NCBI GenBank assembly: GCA_963708025.1 | Contig: CAVPSB010000034.1 | Location: 32,001-96,000 of the forward strand | DNA: 64,000 bases | Direction of reading: 5' to 3' | Origin: an uncultured Candidatus Rokubacteria bacterium | GTDB taxonomy: Bacteria; Methylomirabilota; Methylomirabilia; Rokubacteriales; DASRDR01 | Shown: positions 4,507 to 53,445 of the stretch, one piece after another | Position numbering within the stretch: position 1 is the first letter of the stretch | Layout of the letters: each line of letters opens with the position of its first letter | Made by a program: the position numbers and the translations under genes | Notes under the pieces: model-generated | Databases searched by the model: none | Told to the model about the DNA's origin: nothing | Seen by the model: the letters and a program-made list of their open reading frames with translations, nothing else

Positions 4507-5790
4507 GTGGCCGACGGCATTGCTCCGCGCTACGACGTGCTGGTGGTCGGGGGCGGCCCCGCGGGCTCCACCGCCGCGACCGTGCTGGCCCGCGCGGGGC
4601 TCGCCGTCGCCTGCTTCGAGCGCGAGCGCTTCCCGCGCTTCCACATCGGGGAGTCGCTGCTGCCGGCCTCGGTCCCGCTGTTCGACCGGCTCGGGCTCAC
4701 GCCGCGCATGGAGGCGGCCGGCTTCATCCGGAAGAATGGTGCGGCGTTCATCGACGAGGCGGATGGGCGCCAGATCGTCCTCTTCTTCCGGCGAGGCCCG
4801 CGCTGGGCCGATCACGCCTACAACGTCCCGCGCGCCGACTTCGACCGGCTGCTCCTCGACCACGCCGCCAAGGAGGGCGCGGCGGTCTTCGAGGGAGCCG
4901 AGGTCGAGCGGCTCGCCATCGAGCCGGACCGGGTGCGCTGCGAGGTGCGGACCGACGACGGGGGGCGCTACCCGGTGGAGGCGGCGTTCCTGGTGGACGC
5001 CACCGGGCGCGACAGTCTGCTGGCGCGCCAGATGGGGCGCCGGGAGCCGCTTCCCAGCCTCGGGAAGGCCGCCCTCTTCGCCCACTATCGCGGTGGCGAG
5101 CGCTGGCCGGGGCGCACCGAGGGCCACATCCGGATCTACCTCTTCGAGCACGGCTGGTTCTGGTGGATCCCGTTCGCGGACGACCTGACCAGCATCGGCT
5201 GCGTCCTCCACCAGAAGGTGATGCAGGCGCGCCAGGTGCCGATCGAGGAGCTCTTCGCCGACATGATCGCGGCGGCACCGAGCGTGGCGGCCGGGCTGGC
5301 CCGCGCCACCCGCGTCACCTCCGTCTACAGCACCGCCAACTTCTCCTACCGGACGACGCCCCTGGTGGGCGACCGCTTCGTCGTCGTGGGAGACGCCGTC
5401 ACCTTCGTGGACCCGATCTTCTCCACCGGCGTCCTCGTCGCGATGCAGTCGGCGGAGCTGGCCGCCGGGGTGATCGCCGACGAGGTCCGGTCCGGCGATT
5501 TCCGCGCCGCCCGCTTCGCCCGCTACCGCCGGCGCGTCCAGCGGGGCACCGAGCTGTTCTTCCGCCTGATCGACCGCTACTACGAGCCGGCGTTCATGGA
5601 CGTCCTCCTGGCCCCGAGCCCGCCGCCGATCCTCCGGGACGCCGTGCTGACCGTGCTGGCGGGCGGCGCCTTCCTGCGGCGACCGCTCTGGCTCCGGCTC
5701 CGGCTGGCCGCCGTCACCCTGAACACCTGGATCGAGCGGCGCCGCCGGCTGCGGCGCGGGCTGCCGGTCGAGTCGCGCCTCACGTGGTGA
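4507..5790 (+). CDS. FAD-dependent halogenase-like oxidoreductase
   Basis: GGGPAG, HIGESL, GFIRKNG (conserved Lys), GWFWWIP (WxWxIP), FVDPIFSTG. Confidence 0.85.
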   Translation: MADGIAPRYDVLVVGGGPAGSTAATVLARAGLAVACFERERFPRFHIGESLLPASVPLFDRLGLTPRMEAAGFIRKNGAAFIDEADGRQIVLFFRRGPRWADHAYNVPRADFDRLLLDHAAKEGAAVFEGAEVERLAIEPDRVRCEVRTDDGGRYPVEAAFLVDATGRDSLLARQMGRREPLPSLGKAALFAHYRGGERWPGRTEGHIRIYLFEHGWFWWIPFADDLTSIGCVLHQKVMQARQVPIEELFADMIAAAPSVAAGLARATRVTSVYSTANFSYRTTPLVGDRFVVVGDAVTFVDPIFSTGVLVAMQSAELAAGVIADEVRSGDFRAARFARYRRRVQRGTELFFRLIDRYYEPAFMDVLLAPSPPPILRDAVLTVLAGGAFLRRPLWLRLRLAAVTLNTWIERRRRLRRGLPVESRLTW

Positions 5791-39948: not shown

Positions 39949-40032
39949 CGTCGCCTCCACATCGTCGGACATCGGTTCGTATCGTACCGGGGACGGCCAG
40001 AGGTCTGCAAGCATTCCCGGCCGCGGTCGGCG

Positions 40033-43365: not shown

Positions 43366-43426
43366 CGACGTAGGCCGAGCGCGTCACGACCGAGATGAAC
43401 GTTGCAACGCTCATCGGCCCCGCCCG

Positions 43427-44221
43427 TCAGACGCCGCGGGAGCGGGCGTCTCGCAGCATGTCGATCAGGACCTGCCGGCTCTCCTCGGCGGTGGTGACCT
43501 GGCGGGGGAACGGAATGCGCGCGGCGTGGACGCGGTCGCCGTGCTTGATGCGGAGCTTGAAGCCGAGGCGATCCACGCCGACCATCGATGCCTCGTCGGC
43601 CTCGGCGCCGGCCAGGACGCGGGCGAAGGTGACCAGCGCGTCGGCGTGGTCCTGGTTCATGTGGCTCATGATGCCGGCGGCGACGTCGGCGAGCGGATCG
43701 GGGCCGGCGGTGCGGTATCCCTCGGCATCCACCCAGTCCATCGCCGCGAACCCCCCGACGACGTAGACGTCCTCGACCGCGAGGTGGTAGAAGGCGAAGT
43801 CCCGGAAGTCCATCCAGTAGGCGGCGTTCGGGTGGCGGGCCAGGTATGCGGCCCGGACGGCCTCGTCGCCGTCGATCCGCGTGGCCCGCCCCATCAGCGT
43901 GACCCGTCCGACGGCCAGCGGATCGCCGGGGCCGTCGGTCTCCGTCACCAGCAGGCTCGCCCGCGGGTCCGCGTGGAGGTTCTGGGTGTGCATGGCCAGC
44001 GTGCTGATCAGGAACAGCGGCTGGCCGGCCGCGTCGATCGCGTAGGGCATGACCGAGGCGAACGGATGCCCGGGGTGCTTGCGGGACAGGGTGGCCAGGG
44101 CGCCCGTTCGCCCCCGATGGACCAGCGTCCGGGCTCGCTCCGCGTAGCTCGGCTCCGGGACCGGCGGGGTCGCCGGCTCCGGCTCACCGGGCGGCCCGGC
44201 GTGGCGGTCCGGGCGGCTCAC
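43427..44221 (-). CDS. HugZ/pyridoxamine 5'-phosphate oxidase-like protein with DUF2470 domain
   Basis: 'LAMHTQNL..DPRASLLV', 'GGFA', 'HMNQDH', 'VDRLG'. Confidence 0.88.
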   Translation of the reverse strand: MSRPDRHAGPPGEPEPATPPVPEPSYAERARTLVHRGRTGALATLSRKHPGHPFASVMPYAIDAAGQPLFLISTLAMHTQNLHADPRASLLVTETDGPGDPLAVGRVTLMGRATRIDGDEAVRAAYLARHPNAAYWMDFRDFAFYHLAVEDVYVVGGFAAMDWVDAEGYRTAGPDPLADVAAGIMSHMNQDHADALVTFARVLAGAEADEASMVGVDRLGFKLRIKHGDRVHAARIPFPRQVTTAEESRQVLIDMLRDARSRGV

Positions 44222-45210
44222 CGCGCTGGCCTCGCCACGAAGCCCATCCGCTCGTACATCTGCCGCAGCGTGGGCGCCGAGACCGCCCGCGCCCGCTCGG
44301 CGCCGCGCGCGAGGAGGCGCCCGAGCTCCGCGGGGTCGTCCCGGAGCGCCTCGTAGCGCTTCCGGATCGGCTCCAGCAGCGCGATCACCGCCTCGCCCAC
44401 CTCCGCCTTGAACGTCCCGTAGCCCTGCCCCGCATAGCGGGTCTCGATCGCCTCGGGCGACTCGCCGGTCGCCACCGACAGGATCTCGATGAGGTTCGAG
44501 ATCCCCGCCTTGTCCGGGGCGCGCCGGACCTCACGGCCGGAGTCGGTCACCGCGCTCTTGAACTTCGCCCGGATGGTCTCCGGCGGGTCCAGGACCTGGA
44601 CGGTGCCCGCCGGCGTTCCGCCCGTCGTCAACATCTTCCGCGTGGGGTCCTGGAGGTCCATGACCCGGGCCCCCACCGCCGGGTACACGCCCTCGGGGAG
44701 GACGAACGTCTCGCCGAAGCGCGCGTTGAAGCGCGCCGCCACGTCGCGGGCCAGCTCGAGGTGCTGGCGCTGGTCGTCACCGATCGGGACGCGGTGGGTC
44801 TGGTAGAGGAGGATGTCGGCCGCCATCAGGACGGGGTAGGTGAAGAGCCCGACGGAGACGACTTCCTGCCGCTCGGCCTTGTCCTTGAACTGCGTCATCC
44901 GCCGCAGCTCGCCGAAGCTCGCGACGGCGCCGAGCAGCCAGGCGGCCTCGGCGTGGGCGGGGACGTGGCTCTGGGCGAAGACCGTGGAGCGCTCGGGATC
45001 GAGCCCGATGGCGAAGAGCATGGCGGCGAGGTCCAGCGTGCGGGTCCGGAGGTCTTCCGGGTCGTAGCCGACCGTGATCGAGTGGAGATCCACGATGCAG
45101 AAGAAGGCCTCCCCCTGCTCCTGCATCGCCGCGTACTGTCGAAAGCCGCCGGAGTAGTTGCCGAGGTGCTTTGCCCCGGTCGGCTGGATGCCCGAAAAGA
45201 TGCGCATCAC
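44218..45210 (-). CDS. trpS: Tryptophanyl-tRNA synthetase
   Basis: FSGIQPTG, HLGNY, YPVLMAADIL, GDDQRQHLE. Confidence 0.95.
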   Translation of the reverse strand: MMRIFSGIQPTGAKHLGNYSGGFRQYAAMQEQGEAFFCIVDLHSITVGYDPEDLRTRTLDLAAMLFAIGLDPERSTVFAQSHVPAHAEAAWLLGAVASFGELRRMTQFKDKAERQEVVSVGLFTYPVLMAADILLYQTHRVPIGDDQRQHLELARDVAARFNARFGETFVLPEGVYPAVGARVMDLQDPTRKMLTTGGTPAGTVQVLDPPETIRAKFKSAVTDSGREVRRAPDKAGISNLIEILSVATGESPEAIETRYAGQGYGTFKAEVGEAVIALLEPIRKRYEALRDDPAELGRLLARGAERARAVSAPTLRQMYERMGFVARPAR

Positions 45211-46331
45211 GACGGTTTCGTCTCCACGGCCTGGCCGGCCCGGATGGCGCCGGCCGGGACCAGGCGTCGGGTGGCGGTCACCTTCTCCCCCTGGGCGTCC
45301 TCCAGATCGAATCGACCCTCCTCGAGGGCGAGCAGCGTCACGTCGGCGACCGAGCCCGGCCGGAGCGTCCCCAGCGCGGCCGCGCCCCGCAGCGCCCGGG
45401 CCGGCGCCGCCGTCGTCATCGCGATCACCTCGTCCAGCGGGAAACCCAGGTGGAGGAACTTCGACATGGTGGTGGCGAGGTCGAAGACGGGACCGGCAAG
45501 GTTGTAGACGTGCAGGTCGCTCGAGATGGTCCCGGGCCGGAAGCCCTGGGCCAGCGCCTGTCGGGCGACCGCGAACGCGAAGGAGCCCTTGCCGTGCCCG
45601 ACGTCGAAGTGGACCCCGCGGCCGTCCGCCCGCCGGGCCTCGCCCAGCACCTGGCCCCGGTCGTCGAGGATGCCTTGCCCGCGGCCGTGGAAGCAGTGGG
45701 TCACGATGTCCCCGGACCGCAGCTCGACCAGGATCTCGCCGAGCGGCATGGGGGTGTCGCCGACGTGGACCATGATCGGCAGCCGCGTGGCCTCCGAGGT
45801 CTCCAGCGCGGTCTTCAGCGCGAGCCGGCCGTTCTGGCCCACCAGGTCGCGTGAGAGCCGGACCTTGATCCCCTGGATCAGGTCGCGGTGGGTCTCGATC
45901 GCGCGAAGGGCCGCCGCCTTGTCGATGAACTCGACCAGGGCCAGCTCGCCCACGTCGGGGGAGAGCATGCCGGTGGCGCCGATGTTGAGGAAGGGCAGGA
46001 TCCGCGTCCGGGCGACCTCGATGACGTACCGGCGGAAGACCGGGAAGGTGAGGGCTCCCGCCGAGCCGGCGTCGGCGACGGTCGTCGTCCCGCTGGCCAG
46101 GCAGTGAGGGTCCGGGTCGATCCCGTAGTGCGAGCCGCCCCAGAAGACGTGGACGTGGAGGTCGATCAGGCCGGGGACGACCAGCCGGCCGCGCGCGTCC
46201 ACGACCTCCTCGCCGGGCCGCGGCGCCAGCCCGTCGCCCAGCTCGGCCACCCGCCCGTCGGCAAGCCGCACGTCGCGCAGGGCGTGCAGGCCCTGGCTGG
46301 GGTCGATGACGGTGCCGCCCCGGATGAGCAC
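45207..46331 (-). CDS. Amidohydrolase/deacetylase (dihydroorotase-like)
   Basis: 'PGLIDLHVH', 'DAGSAG', 'THCFHG', 'DVGHG', 'ISSDLH'. Confidence 0.9.
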   Translation of the reverse strand: MLIRGGTVIDPSQGLHALRDVRLADGRVAELGDGLAPRPGEEVVDARGRLVVPGLIDLHVHVFWGGSHYGIDPDPHCLASGTTTVADAGSAGALTFPVFRRYVIEVARTRILPFLNIGATGMLSPDVGELALVEFIDKAAALRAIETHRDLIQGIKVRLSRDLVGQNGRLALKTALETSEATRLPIMVHVGDTPMPLGEILVELRSGDIVTHCFHGRGQGILDDRGQVLGEARRADGRGVHFDVGHGKGSFAFAVARQALAQGFRPGTISSDLHVYNLAGPVFDLATTMSKFLHLGFPLDEVIAMTTAAPARALRGAAALGTLRPGSVADVTLLALEEGRFDLEDAQGEKVTATRRLVPAGAIRAGQAVETKPS

Positions 46332-46335
46332 CGGG

Positions 46336-47480
46336 CTACCGCCGTCCGAACGCCGGCATGACGTCCTTCGCGAACCACCGGAGCTGCTCCTTGAACTCGG
46401 CCGGCGGCACGCCCTCGGGCCAGTGGAGCATGAGCTGCTCGAGCCCGGGATACTTCGCCTCGTACTCCCGGATGAGCGCGATGCAGTCGGCCGGCGGGCC
46501 GACCATCCAGGCCTTCTGCTCGACGCCCTCCTGGATGGTCGGCGACCCGGGCCGGGGCGCCCGGGGTGCCCCACGGCCGGCCCTCGGGGTCGGCGTAGCG
46601 CACGAAGCCGAACGGCGCGAACCACTTGTAGCGCTCGTCGTGGGCCGGCTCGACCTGCCGGATGGCCGCCTCCCGGCTCTCGGCCATGTAGAAGCCGAGC
46701 CCGAGACAGAGGTTCTCCCCCAAGTCGAGCTGCCGGCCGTACTTCGCGCACGCATCCCGGTAGGCCCGGAACACCTGGTCGGTGATCCGCTCGCCGTTCA
46801 GGGTCACCATGCCCTTGATCCCGTGCCGGGCCATGAAGTCGATGCTCTTGCCGCTCGCGATCGGCTGCCAGATCTCGACCGGCCGGTGGATCGGCCGGGG
46901 GACCAGGGTCACCTCGGTCAGCTCGTAGCCCCGGTACGGGATCGGCGGCGGCACCGTGTAGTGCTTGCCCTTGTGGGAGAAGGCCTCCTCGTTCCAGGCC
47001 TTCAGCATCAGCTCGAACTGCTCCTCGAACAGCGCCTGGTTGGCCGCCTGGTCGAGCACGGGCGCCCCGAACGACTCGACCTCTCGGGAGTGGTAGCCGC
47101 GGCCGATCCCCATGACCACCCGGCCGTTCGTCAGGATGTCGGCCACCGCGTAGTCCTCGGCGAGGCGGATCGGGTGCCACATCGGCAGGATGTTGAAGGC
47201 GCAGCCCGTGCTTGAGCCGCCGGGTCACGGCGGCCAGGTAGGTCCCGAGCAGGATCAGGTTCGGGAAGACCTCGTAGCCCTCGCGCTGGAAGTGGTGCTC
47301 CGCCGTCCACAGGGTGTGGTAGCCCAGCTCGTCCATGAGCTGCGCCACGTCGACCACGGTGCGGTAGGCCTCGACGAGGCGCTCGTTCGGGTAGCGCCGC
47401 GCGTCGGCGGGCGTGCCGGCCTTGCCGATGTCGTCGAGCTCGATCTGGCCGACGTAGAGCACGGAGAACTGGTGGATCAT
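46336..47480 (-). CDS. LLM-class flavin-dependent oxidoreductase, frameshifts near 47205 and 46550
   Basis: 'AEHHF', 'WHPIRLAEDYA', 'GRGYH', 'FAKDVMPAF' split over frames. Confidence 0.85.
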
Positions 47481-47606
47481 CGGGCCTCCATCGCGCGTCG
47501 GGTGTGGGAGCCGCTCACGCGATTCTAGCCCGAGTCGGGGAACAAGTCAGGTGGGGGCCGGTGACCGCCGGTGATGGGCCCGGTCCGGCTCGGGCCCGAG
47601 CCCGGC

Positions 47607-47835
47607 TCAGGGGCTCCGCCGGTCACCGGATCCAGGGTCGCCGGCGGCCGGCTGTTCCACCCCGGGCGCGAAGCGCCGGGGCGGCTCGTTCGCCCGGCGA
47701 TGGGATCCGGGGATGGTGCTCGGGTTGCCATCCCGGAGCGAGGTGAAGTGGGGCGACATGATCTCCACCCCGGCCGCGTTGAACGCGTCCTGGATGTGCT
47801 GGTGGAGCTCCCCGTAGATGCGATAGAGGCCGTGT
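47607..47835 (-). pseudogene. Orphan C-terminal fragment of a MscS mechanosensitive channel
   Basis: 'IYGELHQHIQDAFNAAGVEIMSPHFTSLRDGN'; no TM N-terminus upstream. Confidence 0.6.
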
Positions 47836-48043
47836 CGGCTGGACGCCGGCCCGGGGCCGGGGCGAGAATCCGGGGCTACCCCCTGAGCCCGGAGCCCCCT
47901 GGGCCGGGCGTCGGTGGCCTCGTGCCCGTCGGGATCATCCGTTGGATGGCGAAGGCGCGGCCCCGGCCAGACGACCGAAGGACCTCGGGGCGAGCCCGCC
48001 CCCACCGCTGACGCACATCGGGTAGGTCCCGGATGGACGCGGG

Positions 48044-48535
48044 CTACGCCACCTCGCGGAGGCGGCCCGACTTCACGTCGTAGACGAAGCCCCGCACGTG
48101 CTCCCGGTGGGGGACGAAGGGGCTGGCCTTGACGCGCGCGATGGACTGCCGCACGTCCTCGTCCAGGTCGGCGAAGCTCTCCAGGGCGAACGGCGGGCGG
48201 ATCCCCACCTCGGCCTGGATCTGCGCTTTCAACTCGCTGTCGGTGAACGTCAGCATGCCGCAGTCGGTGTGATGGATGAGCACGATCTCGCGAGTCCCCA
48301 GCAGCCGTTGCGAGATCGCCAGCGAGCGCACCGCGTCGTCGGTGACGGCGCCCCCGGCGTTCCGGATCACGTGGGCATCGCCCTCGTCGAGCCCGAGCAG
48401 GTCGTGGACGTCGAGCCGGGCGTCCATGCAGGCCACGACGGCGACGTGCCGGGCCGGCGGCAGCGGCAGGTGGCCCTTGTCGAACGCCGCCGCGTACCGC
48501 TCGTTGTTGTCGAGAAGCTGATCGGTCACGCTCAT
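48044..48535 (-). CDS. Beta-class carbonic anhydrase (small, clade D-like)
   Basis: CMDAR, RNAGG, HHTDCG. Confidence 0.93.
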   Translation of the reverse strand: MSVTDQLLDNNERYAAAFDKGHLPLPPARHVAVVACMDARLDVHDLLGLDEGDAHVIRNAGGAVTDDAVRSLAISQRLLGTREIVLIHHTDCGMLTFTDSELKAQIQAEVGIRPPFALESFADLDEDVRQSIARVKASPFVPHREHVRGFVYDVKSGRLREVA

Positions 48536-48569
48536 GGTTGTCTCCTCCTGTCTCCTGGTTGCGTTGCGG

Positions 48570-49016
48570 TCACCGGACGCTGGCCTCGAGCTCGAGCCGT
48601 CCCACCGCCCACTCCTCCTCGAGGGGGATCCCCGCGTAGGCGGGGACCGCCACGGCGGCGCTGACGCCGGGTACGACCTCCCACGGGATCCCGGCCGCCG
48701 CCAGCGCCTCGGCCTCCTCGCCGCCCCGGCCGAAGACGAACGGGTCGCCGCCTTTCAGCCGGACCACGCGCCGGCCGCGGCGCGCGTGGGCGACGAGGAG
48801 GGCGTTGATCTCCGTCTGGGGCAGACAGTGGGCGCCGGCCGCCTTGCCGGCGAAGACCCGGAGCGCCGCGGGTGACGCTTCGTCGAGCAGGGCCGGGTTG
48901 ACCAGACGGTCGTAGACGATCACGTCTGCGGTCCGCAGCAGCTCCAGCCCGCGGACGGTGAGGAGCCCGGGATCGCCCGGGCCCGCGCCGACCAGGTAGA
49001 CCGCGCCTACCGGCAT
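48570..49016 (-). pseudogene. cobA: Uroporphyrinogen-III C-methyltransferase, C-terminally truncated
   Basis: '[15 protein letters not shown]', '[16 protein letters not shown]'; breaks off after 'AGIPL'. Confidence 0.85.
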
Positions 49017-49019
49017 GCC

Positions 49020-49402
49020 GGCGCTCCGAGCCGCTCGAGGAGCCGCGCCCTGGCCTCGCCGTGGCGGCCCTCCGCCAGGAGCCGGCGGAGATCGCCGCTC
49101 AGGGCGCGCTGCCAGGCGTCCGCGCCGGCCCGGTAGCGACGGGCGCCCAGCTCCCGCCGGACGTCGGCGGCGAGGCGGCTCAGCGCCGCGTAGTCGTCGG
49201 TGAAGTAGCCTTCCAGCTCCTCCCGGATGGCGCGGGAGAGCGCGGGGCTCGTCCCCCCGTCGCCACCGCGACCTGCAGATCCCGCCGCAGGACGGAGGGG
49301 AGGATGAAGGCGCAGTGCGCGGGATCGTCCGCGGCGTTGACCCAGACGCCCCGCCGGTACCCCTCCCGGGCGACGGCCGCGTTGACTGCGCCATCGTCGG
49401 TG
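49020..49402 (-). pseudogene. Precorrin-2 dehydrogenase/ferrochelatase (SirC/CysG-N) fragment
   Basis: 'TDD.AVN...VNAADDP..C.FI.P', '[13 protein letters not shown]'; N-terminus missing, frameshifted. Confidence 0.75.
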
Positions 49403-50984
49403 GGAAGTTCTCGCCGAGGCGGCGCTCGGCGAGGTAGGCGCGGAGCAGGCGCTCGATCGCGCCCGGCACCTCGGTGGCGGGGAAGCGGTAGCCGATGGGC
49501 CGCGCCTTCGCCTGGTGCTCGCCGACGGCGCCGCCGACGCAGAAGTAGTAGGCGTCCACCAGCTGGCCGTCCACCTTGATCTTCTTGCCCTCGATGCCGA
49601 TGTCGGCGATCCAGTGCTGGCCGCAGCTGTTGGGGCAGCCGGTGACGTGGAGCTTCAGGTGCTGGTCGAAGCCCGGCAGCCGGTCCTCGAGTTCCTCCAC
49701 CAGCCAGCGCGCGAAACCCTTGGTCTCGGTAAGCGCCAGCTTGCAGAACTCGGTGCCGGTGCAGGCGACGGCGCCCCGCCAGAACGGCGAGGCGGTGAGC
49801 CGGAAGTCGGCCCGCCTCGGCTTCGGCGACCAGCGCGTCGGCGCGCTCGCGCGGGACGTTCAGGATCAGCAGGTTCTGCATGTTGGTGGTGCGCAGCTCG
49901 CCGGTCCCGTACCGGTCGGCCAGCTCGGCGGCCGCGCGCAGCTCCGCCGGCGTGAGTCCGGCCCCGCAGGACCGCCAGGCCGGCAGAGCAGTAGCCGGCC
50001 TGCTTCTGCGGGTGGATCCCGACGTGGTCGCGGTAGACGTCTTCGGGCGGCTCCTCCGGCACGGCCCGGTCCAGCGCGAAGCCGAGGCGCTGCTCGAGCT
50101 CGGCCTGGAAGCGCTCGGCGGTCCAGCCGTGGCTCAGGAAGAGGAACTTGAGCCGCGCCTTCTCGCGGTTCTGGCGCAGGACCTCGCTGTCGCGGAAGAT
50201 CTCGGAGACGCCCCGGACGACCGGGACCACCTGGCTCCAGCGGACGAAGGCGTCGAGCCGGACCGCGAGGTGCGGCATCGGTCGAGAGCCCGCCGCCGAC
50301 GCGCAGCGAGAAGCCGACCTCGCCGGTGTCCGGGTGGGGCACGGCGGTGAGCCCGACGTCGTTGATCTCGGGATACGAGCACCAGACCCGGCAGCCGGTG
50401 ATGGAGATCTTGTACTTGCGCGGGCAGGTTGTAGAAGTCGGCGTTGCCGTTGAGCAGGGCCGGTCGCCGCCTGGACCAGCGGCGAGGCATCGCGACCTCG
50501 TCGGCGTCCACGCCGGCCAGCGGGCAGCCGGTGATGTTGCGCGTGACGTCGCCGCACGCGCCCATGCTGGTGAGCCCGCGCTCCGCGAGGCGCTCGAGCA
50601 CCTCGGGCAGGTCCTCGATCGGGACCCAGTGGAGCTGGATGTTCTGGCGGACGGTGAGGTCGGCGACGCCCGCGGGCGTGACGCTCGGCGAGGTCGGCGA
50701 TGGTGCGGAGCTGGCGGGAGCGAAGGATGCCGTTGGGGATGCGGATGCGCACCATGAAGTAGGGGACGGCCTTGCCCTCGCCGCCCTTGCCGCCGACCGC
50801 GCCGACGCCGTCGCCCTGGGTGTAGACGCCCCACCACCGGAAGTACGTCCCCCACTCCGGGCGGAATGGCGCCGTGGCCCTCGCGGGCGAAGCGCTCGAT
50901 CTCCGCGCGGGCCTCCCAGGGGTTGAGGGCCCGCTTCAGGCGCTCGACCTTCTGGGCCTTGGTCTCCTTCACCGGCTCGGTCAT
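49400..50984 (-). pseudogene. Ferredoxin-type sulfite/nitrite reductase with about 8 frameshifts and a truncated C-terminus
   Basis: 'MVRIRIPNG', 'RNITGCP', 'RKYKISITGC', 'ACTG', '[12 protein letters not shown]' across frames. Confidence 0.85.
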
Positions 50985-51005
50985 CCCGTGCTCCTCTCGA
51001 GACGC

Positions 51006-51048
51006 AAAAAAGCCGAGCGGTGGGCTCCTCGCCCGGCCGCTCGGCTTT
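51006..51048 (-). terminator. Intrinsic terminator between the zinc-ribbon sORF and the sulfite reductase
   Basis: AAAGCCGAGCGG/CCGCTCGGCTTT stem plus T6 on the minus strand. Confidence 0.8.
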
Positions 51049-51088
51049 CCGTCGTTCGCTCGACTTTCGCCTTTTCGCCGGCTCTACG

Positions 51089-51277
51089 CTACGCGCTGTA
51101 CTTCAGGGGCACCTCCACCCAGGCCTTGCAGCGGGGACACTTCGCACGGGCGGACCCCGTGAGGCTGCTCACCCGCAGGATGGCGTTCCGGACCACGAGC
51201 CCCTCGTCGTCGGGCACGACGATCTTGGTCCGGCACACCGGGCACCGCCGGGGGAGCTGGGCTGCGGGCGCCTCCAT
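51089..51277 (-). CDS. 62-aa CxxC-CxxC zinc ribbon protein (Com-like)
   Basis: 'RCPVC...KCPRCK'; ATG 8 nt after the -10 box. Confidence 0.75.
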   Translation of the reverse strand: MEAPAAQLPRRCPVCRTKIVVPDDEGLVVRNAILRVSSLTGSARAKCPRCKAWVEVPLKYSA

Positions 51278-51285
51278 GTGCGGCA

Positions 51286-51310
51286 AAGCTACAGTTGTCT
51301 ATCGGGAAAG

Positions 51311-51314
<4 letters not shown>
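51286..51314 (-). promoter_or_regulatory. Sigma-70 promoter of the zinc-ribbon sORF/sulfite reductase operon
   Basis: TTGACT-17-TAGCTT on the minus strand. Confidence 0.65.
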
Positions 51315-51869
<555 letters not shown>

Positions 51870-51889
<20 letters not shown>

Positions 51890-53361
51890 GACCCTCTCCC
51901 GCGTGCTCCAGGGCGCGGACGAGGCCCCGCGCCTTGGCGACGCACTCCTGGTGTTCCTGCTCAGGAATCGAATCCGCGACGATCCCGGCGCCGGCCTGGA
52001 CGTAGGCGGTGCCCCGATGGACGAGGACGGTCCGGATGGTGATCGCGGTGTTCAGCGAGCCGTCGAGCCCGATGTACCCGACCGTGCCGGCGTAGGGACC
52101 GCGGGCGACCGGCTCCAGCTCGTCGATGATCTCCATCGCCCGGACCTTGGGGGCCCCGGAGACCGTGCCGTGCGGGAAGACCGCCTGAAGGACGTCCCAC
52201 GGACCGCGGCCGGGCTGGATCTCGCCCCTCGACGTGCGAGACGAGGTGCATGACGTGGGAGTAGCGCTCGATGGCCATCAGCTCGGTCACCCGGACGCTG
52301 CCGTAGCGCGACACGCGCCCGACGTCGTTCCGGGTGAGGTCGACGAGCATGACGTGCTCGGCCCGCTCCTTGGGGTCGGCGGACAGCTCGGCGGCCAGCG
52401 TCGCGTCCTCGGCTTCGGTTGCGCCCCGGCGTCGGGTGCCGGCCAGGGGGCGCATGTCGACGCGCCCGTGCTCGAGGCGGACCAGCCGCTCGGGGGAGGC
52501 GCCCGCGAGCCACGCCCCGCCGGCGTCGAGCAGGAACATGTAGGGCGACGGGTTCAGCATCCGGAGCGCGCGGTAGATGGCCAGCGGGTCGAGGCCGGGC
52601 ACCGGCGTGGCGAAGCGCTGGGAGAGGATGACCTGGTAGATGTCGCCGGCCCGGATGTGCTCCTGCGCCCGCTCGACGGCCGCGCAGTAGGTCTCGGGCG
52701 TCGTGTGGGCCTGCGGGGCGATCGGGATCGCCGGGCTGGCCGGGATCGCCGGCCGCGGCCCATCCAGGCGCTCGAGCCAGGCGGCGATCCGCTCGCGGGC
52801 CCGCCGGTAGGCGGCTTCGGCGCCGTCGTCCAGGAAGGCGTTGGCGACGATCCGCAGCGTGTGGTGGCGGTGATCGAAGACGACGACCGTGTCCATCAGC
52901 GACAGCCGGAAGACGGGGAGTCCCAGGTCGTCCGGTGGGCGCCGGGGCAGACGCTCCCACAGGCGGATGGCGTCGTAGCCGAGGTAGCCGACGAAGCCGC
53001 CGACCATCGGCGGGAGCCCCGGCCGTCCGAGCGCGCGGTAGCGGGCGAGCTGGCCGTGGACCACCGCCAGGGGCGCGCCCGCATCCATCACCCGGCCGCC
53101 CGGATCGAGCACGCGAGCCGTCTGGCCGTCGCTCTCGATGGTGAGGCGCGGGTCGCCGCCGAGCACCGAAAAGCGCGCCACCTGGGCGCCCCCCTCGACG
53201 CTCTCGAAGAGGAAGCTCGACGGCAGATCCCGCAGCTTGAGGTAAGCCGAGATCGGGGTCTCCAGATCGGCGGAGACCTCGCAGGAGACCGGGACGACGT
53301 TGGCGTCCCCCCGGAGCCTGAGGAACTCGCTCTGCGTCGGCTCCAGCGTCAGACCGTGCAT
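51870..53361 (-). CDS. trpE: Anthranilate synthase component I, frameshift near 52225
   Basis: 'LFESVEG', 'NPSPYM', '[15 protein letters not shown]', 'YSHVMH', 'QAGAGIV'; Trp leader upstream. Confidence 0.92.
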
Positions 53362-53399
53362 CGGATTCTCCTTCCCGATCGGTGCCCGCCGTGGCGGCG

Positions 53400-53445
53400 A
53401 AACGAAAACGCCGGGGCTCGCGGGACCGTCCCGCTTGCCTCGGCG
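53400..53445 (-). terminator. trp attenuator terminator
   Basis: CGCCGAGGC..GCGGGA/TCCCGC..GCCCCGGCG stem followed by TTTTCGTTT. Confidence 0.75.

Follow-up and report, generated by a model that had tools for sequence, protein, structure and literature searches.

A 2025 review of RNA-binding antiterminators describes the CAT, ANTAR, and HutP types, and the word “zinc” does not occur in it (PMC12591593). Heading a sulfite-reduction operon of uncultured soil Rokubacteria is an element that seems to be an undescribed type of regulatory cassette, self-contained and built around a small zinc-ribbon protein. It is described here from a stretch of 64,000 nucleotides (nt) of an uncultured Candidatus Rokubacteria bacterium (contig CAVPSB010000034.1, positions 32,001 to 96,000; the whole stretch is called the window), in which it consists of a promoter, an open reading frame (ORF), a short hairpin termed P1, and an intrinsic terminator that overlaps P1. 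The hut operon of Bacillus subtilis has the order hutP–terminator–hutH. As in hut, the candidate regulator gene of the cassette is promoter-proximal and is separated from the structural genes by an intrinsic terminator. In both systems, the RNA site or candidate site is located in or next to the 5′ part of the terminator, and the structural genes depend, or here would depend, on read-through (for hut: PMC12591593, PMC2425495). HutP itself is depicted there as a hexamer (~150 amino acids, aa) of its own family that binds XAG repeats and needs histidine and Mg2+ (PMC12591593). The cassette differs in encoding a 62-aa zinc ribbon that is predicted to be a dimer, with a hairpin as its candidate site.

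The hairpin of a ribonucleic antiterminator (RAT) site overlaps its terminator by a few bases and loses to it unless bound. The combination of a symmetric dimer with a weak, quasi-symmetric internal-loop hairpin that overlaps the 5′ arm of a terminator, as in BglG, SacY, and LicT with RAT, is matched in the cassette by a predicted dimer and P1. In contrast to BglG and LicT, which the same review outlines (PMC12591593), the cassette protein has no CAT or PRD domain in Pfam, the candidate regulator is encoded inside the transcript that it would regulate, and the target genes are sulfur rather than sugar genes.

The elements of the cassette are as follows, in window coordinates, with the locus read on the minus strand:

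51286..51314, minus strand: promoter, from reading of the sequence; the same promoter type lies 5′ of the ORF in relatives
51089..51277, minus strand: zinc-ribbon gene, 62 aa, with the ATG at 51277 and the TAG stop at 51091–51089
51043..51071, minus strand: P1 hairpin, 17 nt after the TAG, with invariant triplets
51006..51048, minus strand: intrinsic terminator, with stem AAAGCCGAGCGG / CCGCTCGGCTTT, an inner stem-loop, and a T-run at 51011–51006; the stem covaries
50982..50998, minus strand: ribosome-binding site GAGAGGAG and reductase ATG (50984), the ATG 21 nt past the T-run

The promoter, ORF, hairpin, overlapping terminator, ribosome-binding site, and reductase ATG are all found where the initial annotation, made from the letters of the window, had placed them. 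The –35 box (TTGACT, 51314–51309) overlaps the TGA stop of the upstream gene, a trpG/pabA-type glutamine amidotransferase gene (Pfam GATase), and is separated from the –10 box (TAGCTT, 51291–51286) by a 17-nt spacer with a conserved CCGAT-GA-A core. The ORF ATG lies 8 nt 3′ of the –10 box, and a spacing of 5–9 nt is observed in 25 of 31 scored loci; three others (L014, L029, L037) also fit, by eye, if the first of two TTGACA repeats is the –35 box. Judged from this spacing, a leaderless or near-leaderless mRNA is the rule for the zinc-ribbon ORF loci. In the window genome (G000), the promoter motif has one match, compared with none in the control, and no further copies. A consensus promoter/terminator scanner with fixed criteria detected neither the promoter, the –10 box of which has three of six matches, nor the terminator, the loop of which exceeds 8 nt, so that both assignments rest on conservation. 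The distance from the T-run to the reductase, 21 nt here, is ~20–30 nt in most reductase-linked loci, which leaves no room for a separate promoter, as had been noted from the window.

The first cistron is a real gene, and its conservation indicates that it encodes a basic Zn(Cys)4-ribbon protein and not a leader peptide. The ORF of 62 codons carries the motif RRCPVCR-x31-KCPRCK, with two CxxC knuckles (C12/C15 and C47/C50) and 31 residues between C15 and C47; the spacing of 26 reported at first was a miscount. Homologues fall into 204 clusters at an expectation value (E) of ≤0.01, with 54–95% identity, and their named sources are Rokubacteria(les)/Methylomirabilota. The family is narrow, because an exhaustive profile search of 1.84 billion representatives gave only 112 matches at E≤1e-3. 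The ORF is matched in 26 of 41 related genomes, a set that for all tallies of the ORF, of the RNA model R1 described below, and of the NIR_SIR domain includes the unpublished genome G038. Of the 62 alignment columns, 27 do not vary, and seven of the fixed residues are K/R positions that flank the knuckles. The median ratio of nonsynonymous to synonymous divergence (dN/dS), 0.07 for 55 pairs in genus g5 and 0.215 for 22 pairs elsewhere (median dS outside g5, 0.76), indicates strong purifying selection, also in g5, in which no sulfite reductase was found.

The core of the protein has a median isoelectric point (pI) of 9.8 and a net charge of +7, and the AlphaFold2 model is a five-strand zinc ribbon with a predicted local distance difference test score (pLDDT) of 76. 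The protein is predicted to form a symmetric homodimer: the homodimer prediction scores 0.44, compared with 0.00 for the best control, a mark attained by 20 of 30 solved homodimers and 1 of 23 monomers. Contact agreement among the dimer runs is at least 90%, and the partner pLDDT is at least 74. The predicted interface is composed of residues 25–39 and 57–62, in the inner hairpin and at the C terminus, and includes the invariant NAILR and VPL-Y motifs. A Foldseek search of the PDB gave nothing at E≤0.001, and its weak matches (E≥0.09) are all nucleic-acid-binding zinc ribbons; a family-profile sequence search of the PDB gave no match below E=0.34. Its charge, its invariant K/R residues, and these weak fold matches suggest that the protein binds nucleic acids.

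In the copies of Pfam and NCBIfam searched, no model matches at its cut-off, the best sub-threshold match being a generic zinc ribbon, DUF7340 (22 bits, cut-off 27), for which a literature search found no publication. One homologue bears the precomputed label PF27618.1, an accession outside the Pfam copy searched, and the family may already be in Pfam. The ESM Atlas holds only the family’s own cluster and unnamed clusters. A search for longer, fused forms among proteins of 110–2000 aa returned two matches, both of ~115 aa and probably the result of start-codon calls. The cyanobacterial protein NirP1 was ruled out as a relative, because it is an acidic protein (pI 4.59) that conserves a single Cys and three Trp.

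The initial annotation described the ORF as Com-like. Similar to the cassette protein, phage Mu Com (AF083977) has 62 aa and two CxxC knuckles, the second of which is CPRCK, and is encoded immediately 5′ of the gene that it controls, acting on an RNA hairpin in its own transcript. In contrast to the cassette, com overlaps mom, no terminator is present, and Com acts on translation. No kinship of the two proteins is detected: hhalign gives 41% probability over 16 columns of the second knuckle only, and the knuckles of Com are 16 residues apart, compared with 31. The Com zinc-ribbon family PF10122 (Zn_ribbon_Com) is absent from the window protein at E≤0.01 and from eight homologues at E≤0.1, and matches 2 of 22 remote relatives weakly, with a best E of 0.007. 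A tblastn search of 50,697 phage records gave nothing below E=3. The resemblance to Com is one of layout only.

P1 has the sequence GGC-GAAA-GTCG-AGCGAA-CGAC-GGAAA-GCC and folds into GGC/GCC and GUC(G)/(C)GAC helices on either side of an internal loop rich in purines (GAAA/GGAAA). In the 5′ to 3′ direction, the two strands of P1 read GGC-GAAA-GUC and GAC-GAAA-GCC and are nearly alike, and the folded hairpin therefore has quasi two-fold symmetry, which we infer would suit a symmetric protein dimer. The 3′ GCC of P1 doubles as the base of the 5′ arm of the terminator, pairing with the 3′ arm in 29–30 of 30 sequences, so that P1 and the terminator exclude each other. The 112-nt 3′ region folds with –49.6 kcal/mol (z = –2.8; equalled by 1 of 200 shuffles). 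The folding energy of P1 is –4 to –7 kcal/mol, compared with –26 to –38 kcal/mol for the terminator, and forcing P1 to form costs 4.5–12 kcal/mol. Because the terminator far outcompetes it in energy, P1 would need a stabilizing factor. Covariation had been suggested as a check on the two structures, and it bears out one of them: the terminator stem covaries, with 5 of 11 pairs changed on both sides (reached by 2 of 500 shuffles) and a score of 0.188 compared with 0.091 in shuffles (reached by none of 500), whereas P1 is invariant and gives no covariation either way. The outer pairs of P1 never vary, and all four of its triplets stay the same in 64 of 65 unique metagenome sequences, in which loops and flanks are variable. 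P1 is thus under strong sequence constraint. A scan of window positions 40000–64000 against Rfam gave no covariance-model match at E≤1, in agreement with the earlier view that the element is undescribed. The RNA targets of ANTAR proteins are dual hexaloops with an A1/G4 loop pattern. P1 was ruled out by eye as such a target, its loops being of 4 nt and lacking the A1/G4 pattern.

The cassette is conserved: of 33 genome loci, 31 show the pattern GGC-N-GTC-loop-GAC-N-GCC-G, and deletions account for the other two. A covariance model, R1, built from 30 sequences, has a single sense match in the window genome and matches at E≤0.01 in 25 of the 41 genomes. Two of these (G005, G006) are terminators of Trp attenuators, and all of the other 23 R1-positive genomes also encode the zinc-ribbon ORF. 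In metagenomes, scanned with alignment A1 after a diverse alignment, A4, was dropped as too variable, R1 lies directly 3′ of the ORF in 76 of 80 loci, with one more cut by the contig end. The distance from the stop codon to the start of P1 is 13–29 nt across loci (offsets of 16–32 from the first stop base). A search of five genomes with the P1 pattern alone gave matches at the control rate besides the known sites. As judged from these distributions, the promoter, ORF, P1, and terminator form one heritable block that occurs once per genome, and this layout is shared by relatives far more often than chance would give. The homologue search proposed with the initial annotation thus shows the ORF, P1, and terminator recurring before the reductase or the remainder of its operon. 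No description of the cassette was found in the literature searched, including that on Rokubacteria sulfite reductase.

Weak R1 matches in G001 and G002 are located just upstream of trpE. The window has a Trp leader upstream of its own trpE (53564–53481, minus strand), with a 27-codon ORF containing six Trp codons, an ATG ~10 nt past a promoter-like TTGACA...TACCGT, and a hairpin and T-run terminator at ~53446–53400. Similar Trp leaders are observed upstream of trpE in G005 and G006 (L141, L143).

The reading that we favor, tentatively, is that the predicted protein dimer binds the quasi-symmetric P1 and controls read-through, as do HutP and BglG, the closest mechanistic parallels, at their sites. 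The promoter would give a leaderless or near-leaderless mRNA, the first cistron of which encodes the basic Zn(Cys)4-ribbon protein, with a core of ~50 residues. By default, the terminator would fold and most transcripts would stop after the small gene; the downstream genes, having no promoter of their own, would be expressed only by read-through. Binding of the dimer would stabilize P1, or engage its two purine-rich half-sites, and the bound P1 would deprive the terminator of its base beside the U-tract and so permit read-through. A signal, for which Cys, sulfide, Zn, and redox state are candidates, may act through the Zn-thiolate site of the protein itself. The architecture is that of protein-dependent antitermination: a terminator 5′ of the structural genes, no second promoter, and a weak conserved RNA site overlapping the 5′ arm of the terminator. 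RNA binding by the protein is suggested by the co-occurrence of P1 and the ORF (23 of 23 genomes), the charge, and the dimer model.

One transcript observation is available. A 258-nt RNA contig from one soil metatranscriptome, apparently filed twice (X15 and X16), matches window positions 51006–51253 with ~96% identity. Its fit stops at the last T of the T-run (51006), its remaining 10 letters fit the window nowhere, and the DNA contigs of X1 and X2 continue across the terminator; the contig gives a weak hint of a 3′ end at 51006. No RNA contig spanning the terminator was seen in the libraries examined, which proves nothing, and RNA-library contigs over the reductase region show low likeness and may stem from other organisms.

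Several observations weigh against the antitermination reading. The invariant pairs of P1 provide no covariation for or against pairing, and a different protein, a small ligand, or a partner RNA could just as well be the reason for their constancy. The evidence for the dimer is a model score, not a measurement. Pfam and NCBIfam scans of the protein and its relatives gave no CAT, ANTAR, or HutP family. In many relatives, the U-tract is just UUU followed by CGCG, and termination may therefore be leaky anyway. A Cys-dependent activator of sulfur assimilation would have the wrong sign unless a ligand or the redox state switches the protein. In G040 and L036, an intact ORF lies directly 5′ of the reductase, and a deletion has removed P1 and the 5′ terminator arm. 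The rest of G040 yielded no true P1, a purine-rich match to the P1 pattern there being located inside a coding region. Because G040 and L036 keep the ORF without P1, the protein has at least one role independent of P1. In addition, the promoter runs straight into the reductase without any ORF in a number of relatives, among them L132 and L133 (G034, G037), L135 and L137 (G027, G029), and L140 (G005). The promoter of these relatives has the form TTGACA, a CCGATCGACAAT-type spacer, and TAnnTT. In G034 and G037, the reductase ATG is 8 nt past the –10 box, and the reductase mRNA would therefore itself be leaderless.

Other natural variants separate the parts of the cassette. In G021 (L129, G021:C1:139700-143300, ~130–300), the same promoter precedes an 11-codon ORF with three Cys codons, followed 13 nt past its stop by an intact P1, the terminator, and the genes cysH (PAPS_reduct) and sat (ATP-sulfurylase). 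The full-length ORF of this genome (L129, ~2600–2830) lies 2.4 kb downstream, directly 5′ of the reductase, without P1 or a terminator, and G021 is thus a natural separation test of ORF and P1. In G036 (L131, G036:C5:374300-375500, ~430–620), which has no full-length ORF, the same promoter precedes a 23-codon ORF with four Cys codons, a half-degenerate P1 (GGC 6 nt past the stop), the terminator, and the reductase; this mini-ORF looks like two zinc knuckles joined by an internal deletion. Such collapsed, Cys-rich mini-ORFs near P1 are as expected of a ribosome-operated Cys attenuator, a lead from two cases only. A further variation concerns the promoter. In L034, L039, and L042 (~4960–5000), and also in L128, a perfect 24-bp palindrome, GGTCGGAATAGTACTATTCCGACC, extends over the –10 box into the beginning of the ORF; it may be an operator and is not a conserved feature of other clades.

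The genes behind the cassette in the window are the following:

49293..50984, minus strand: NirA-family (sulfite) reductase gene, split among three reading frames by four or more frame changes in this assembly
48044..49400, minus strand: rest of the operon, comprising a siroheme synthase gene (NAD-binding and methylase parts, frameshifted) and a β-carbonic anhydrase gene at 48044–48535

The β-carbonic anhydrase (163 aa) is the last gene of the operon. No intact NIR_SIR match is present in G000. Relative to intact relatives, frame changes within window positions 43400–53400 affect the reductase gene (at least four), a luciferase-like gene (46339–47480; two), and trpE (51882–53373; one), and the siroheme synthase gene (48621–49401) is also frame-shifted. 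Short-read contigs of relatives have one base fewer at 50862 and single-base homopolymer indels in the leader at 51031 and 51055. Because housekeeping genes are affected too, the frame changes look like indel errors of the assembly and not gene decay, and the window should not be relied on at the level of single bases, for example for the lengths of loops or of the T-run.

Of the two flanks of the cassette, the downstream one is conserved. In a census of 32 genome loci and 80 metagenome loci, a NirA-family reductase is directly downstream at 20 (17 by Pfam, three by reading or tblastn) and 30 loci, respectively, and a siroheme synthase N-domain at 1 (L022) and 29. A β-carbonic anhydrase follows at 10 of the genome loci, in genus g5 (eight by Pfam, two by reading), with one more truncated copy (L024), and at 7 of the metagenome loci. 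Nothing was recognized at none of the genome loci and 14 of the metagenome loci, nine of which have <250 nt left; L114–L116, within these 14, form one group, in which L114 has a 1-Cys peroxiredoxin by Pfam. The upstream genes differ among loci (trpG, aldehyde dehydrogenase, MscS, sigma-54 activator). At L128 (G030:C95:40700-43700, ~560–640), a remnant resembling the reductase N terminus lies behind the cassette, followed by a 1-Cys peroxiredoxin gene. From its sequence, this remnant is a deletion scar marking recent loss of the reductase with the cassette kept. The loci look like successive losses from one operon of ORF, reductase, peroxiredoxin or siroheme synthase, and carbonic anhydrase, and the cassette is retained at the head of the operon in each reduced form. 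In genus g5, the NIR_SIR domain is found in none of 15 genomes, several of which are 97–99% complete, and the ORF is found in 13 of the 15, with P1 and the terminator kept. In this genus (e.g., L031, 5301–5792), the first gene behind the cassette encodes the β-carbonic anhydrase, a zinc enzyme.

The window reductase scores below all NCBIfam equivalog cut-offs, with ferredoxin-nitrite reductase as the top score. Nevertheless, the relatives point to a sulfite-reductase role. By eye, frames of ~960–990 aa that resemble Sat-reductase fusions occur in four loci (L136, L138, L139, and L144, in G027:C65, G029:C116, G039:C170, and G005:C220), in which the C-terminal part of an ATP-sulfurylase-like protein runs directly into the reductase N terminus (KETKAQR...). 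G021 has the cluster cysH-sat-ORF-reductase. In G022 (L145, G022:C428:9060-9960, minus strand), a response regulator with an ANTAR-like C terminus, assigned by eye, is located ahead of hairpins and of another NirA type that scores higher; this is probably the leader of a nitrite reductase in the NasT/NasR style and is separate from the cassette. The link to sulfur metabolism proposed at the outset is thus strengthened by the NirA-family reductase and by the ATP sulfurylase fusions and cysH-sat clustering of relatives.

Among other accounts of the locus, the one that survives best, though we consider it unlikely, is that P1 and the terminator form a regulated attenuator with a different effector, such as another protein, a small molecule or metal acting on a miniature riboswitch, and that the zinc-ribbon protein has a separate job in promoter DNA binding, redox chemistry, or zinc handling. 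Invariant P1 triplets are expected of any sequence-specific reader, and in G021 P1 and the terminator gate cysH-sat behind an 11-codon mini-ORF and not behind the protein gene, just as G040 and L036 keep the protein without P1. The conserved promoter spacer and the palindrome of one clade suggest a DNA-binding regulator. What speaks for the protein as the effector is that P1 is present solely in genomes that also encode it (23 of 23). With ~16 fixed bases and a 3+3-bp frame, P1 is small for a ligand pocket and matches nothing in Rfam, and its occurrence once per genome argues against a regulon-wide site.

A less probable account treats the small gene as unexceptional, with a promoter of its own and a terminator that leaks, in which constitutive partial read-through sets a high ratio of protein to enzyme and P1 is a 3′ untranslated region (3′-UTR) element for stability or processing, or a 3′-UTR-derived small RNA. 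The promoter, ORF, and terminator do make a complete transcription unit, from ORF to T-run spanned by the RNA-library contig, and the short, interrupted U-tracts of relatives and the tolerated loss of P1 and terminator in G040 and L036 would agree with leakiness. In G021, however, P1 and the terminator are located in the 5′ leader of cysH-sat and not at the 3′ end of a protein gene. Moreover, the overlap of P1 with the base of the terminator is kept in 29–30 of the 30 aligned sequences, and P1 is fixed across families in which the ORF has diverged widely at synonymous sites (the median dS of 0.76 outside g5).

A protein of this kind could instead be a partner of the siroheme sulfite reductase, as an electron carrier, a metal or cofactor chaperone, or an inhibitor, with no regulatory role. 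The precedent is CysX of Corynebacterium glutamicum, a protein of 82 aa with four conserved Cys, encoded beside cysI, the deletion of which slows growth on sulfate, sulfite, and thiosulfate (PMC1266029). Similar to the cassette protein, CysX is a small four-Cys protein beside a ferredoxin-type sulfite reductase in a sulfate-assimilation operon (PMC1266029; bioRxiv 10.1101/072470). Compared by description only, the two differ in that CysX is encoded 3′ of cysI, has a pI of 7.9, and is a proposed electron carrier (PMC1266029), whereas the cassette gene is 5′ of the reductase, is followed by a terminator of its own, has a product of pI 9.8, and is retained in genomes in which no reductase was found. 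The position of the ORF directly 5′ of the reductase in 20 of 32 genome and 30 of 80 metagenome loci is what a partner would show. Its retention in g5 under a dN/dS of 0.07, in genomes that have no NIR_SIR domain, is not, and neither are the eight reductase-bearing relatives without an ORF match to this query, a pI unlike that of acidic electron carriers, and the lack of fused forms among proteins of 110–2000 aa. We regard this alternative as improbable.

Ribosome-mediated Cys attenuation, in which slow translation of Cys codons under Cys limitation would shift the RNA fold and raise downstream expression, is very improbable, since a leaderless ORF, an alternative hairpin, and a terminator before sulfur genes, together with the Cys-rich mini-ORFs at the same position in two relatives (11 codons with three Cys; 23 codons with four Cys), are set against a full-length ORF with four Cys in 62 codons that are non-adjacent zinc ligands, a peptide conserved as a whole, unlike the Trp leader of the window (six Trp in 27 codons), a last Cys codon 36 nt before a stop that is itself 13–29 nt before P1, distances too long for a stalled or terminating ribosome to touch P1 in most loci, and a P1 too weak to beat the terminator unaided. 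Its precedent is provided by mycobacterial polycysteine ORFs, which serve as Cys-responsive attenuators, being leaderless Cys-codon first cistrons that head cysteine or sulfur operons, and short Cys-tract peptides on which ribosomes stall at structures that sequester the ribosome-binding site (bioRxiv 10.1101/834739). The cassette differs in combining a folded, conserved protein with a transcription terminator, and a resemblance is seen only in the mini-ORF variants of G021 and G036.

The interpretation given in the initial annotation is partly supported. Stalling at Cys codons, one of the two modes it offered, is not supported, in view of the spaced zinc-ligand Cys residues, the 27 of 62 invariant columns, the dN/dS of 0.07–0.215, and a stop 13–29 nt before P1. 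The other mode, binding of the leader RNA by the zinc ribbon, is plausible. Of the parallel that it drew with the leader-peptide attenuators of the window, the mutually exclusive hairpin and terminator hold; a run of Cys codons and a hairpin within reach of the ribosome were not found.

A bolder form of the antitermination reading, which we consider rather unlikely in its entirety, is that a homodimeric Zn(Cys)4 ribbon of ~50 residues is an RNA-binding antiterminator of a new class, translated from the leaderless first cistron of its own operon, and that it clamps a quasi-palindromic GAAA/GAAA internal-loop hairpin and thereby overcomes the terminator behind its gene. Sensing would take place at the metal-thiolate site, with sulfide, cysteine, zinc, or oxidation stripping or altering the zinc and so turning sulfur assimilation off, and in some lineages a Cys-rich mini-ORF would have made of the same RNA element a ribosome-operated attenuator. 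The four natural forms of the locus (ORF, P1, and terminator; ORF alone; Cys-rich mini-ORF, P1, and terminator; promoter alone) offer a ready comparison of protein- and ribosome-mediated attenuation and of their interconversion. Being compact (~330 nt) and self-contained, the cassette lends itself to tests in vitro or in a surrogate host, and it might find use as a portable switch. Even on the dullest reading, the locus holds an unannotated, conserved small-protein family and an RNA motif that is absent from Rfam. If the antitermination reading is true, a very small zinc-ribbon protein would join the RNA-binding antiterminators (CAT, ANTAR, HutP, PyrR, and TRAP), and the cassette would provide a first handle on the control of sulfate assimilation in Rokubacteriales, an abundant uncultured soil lineage.

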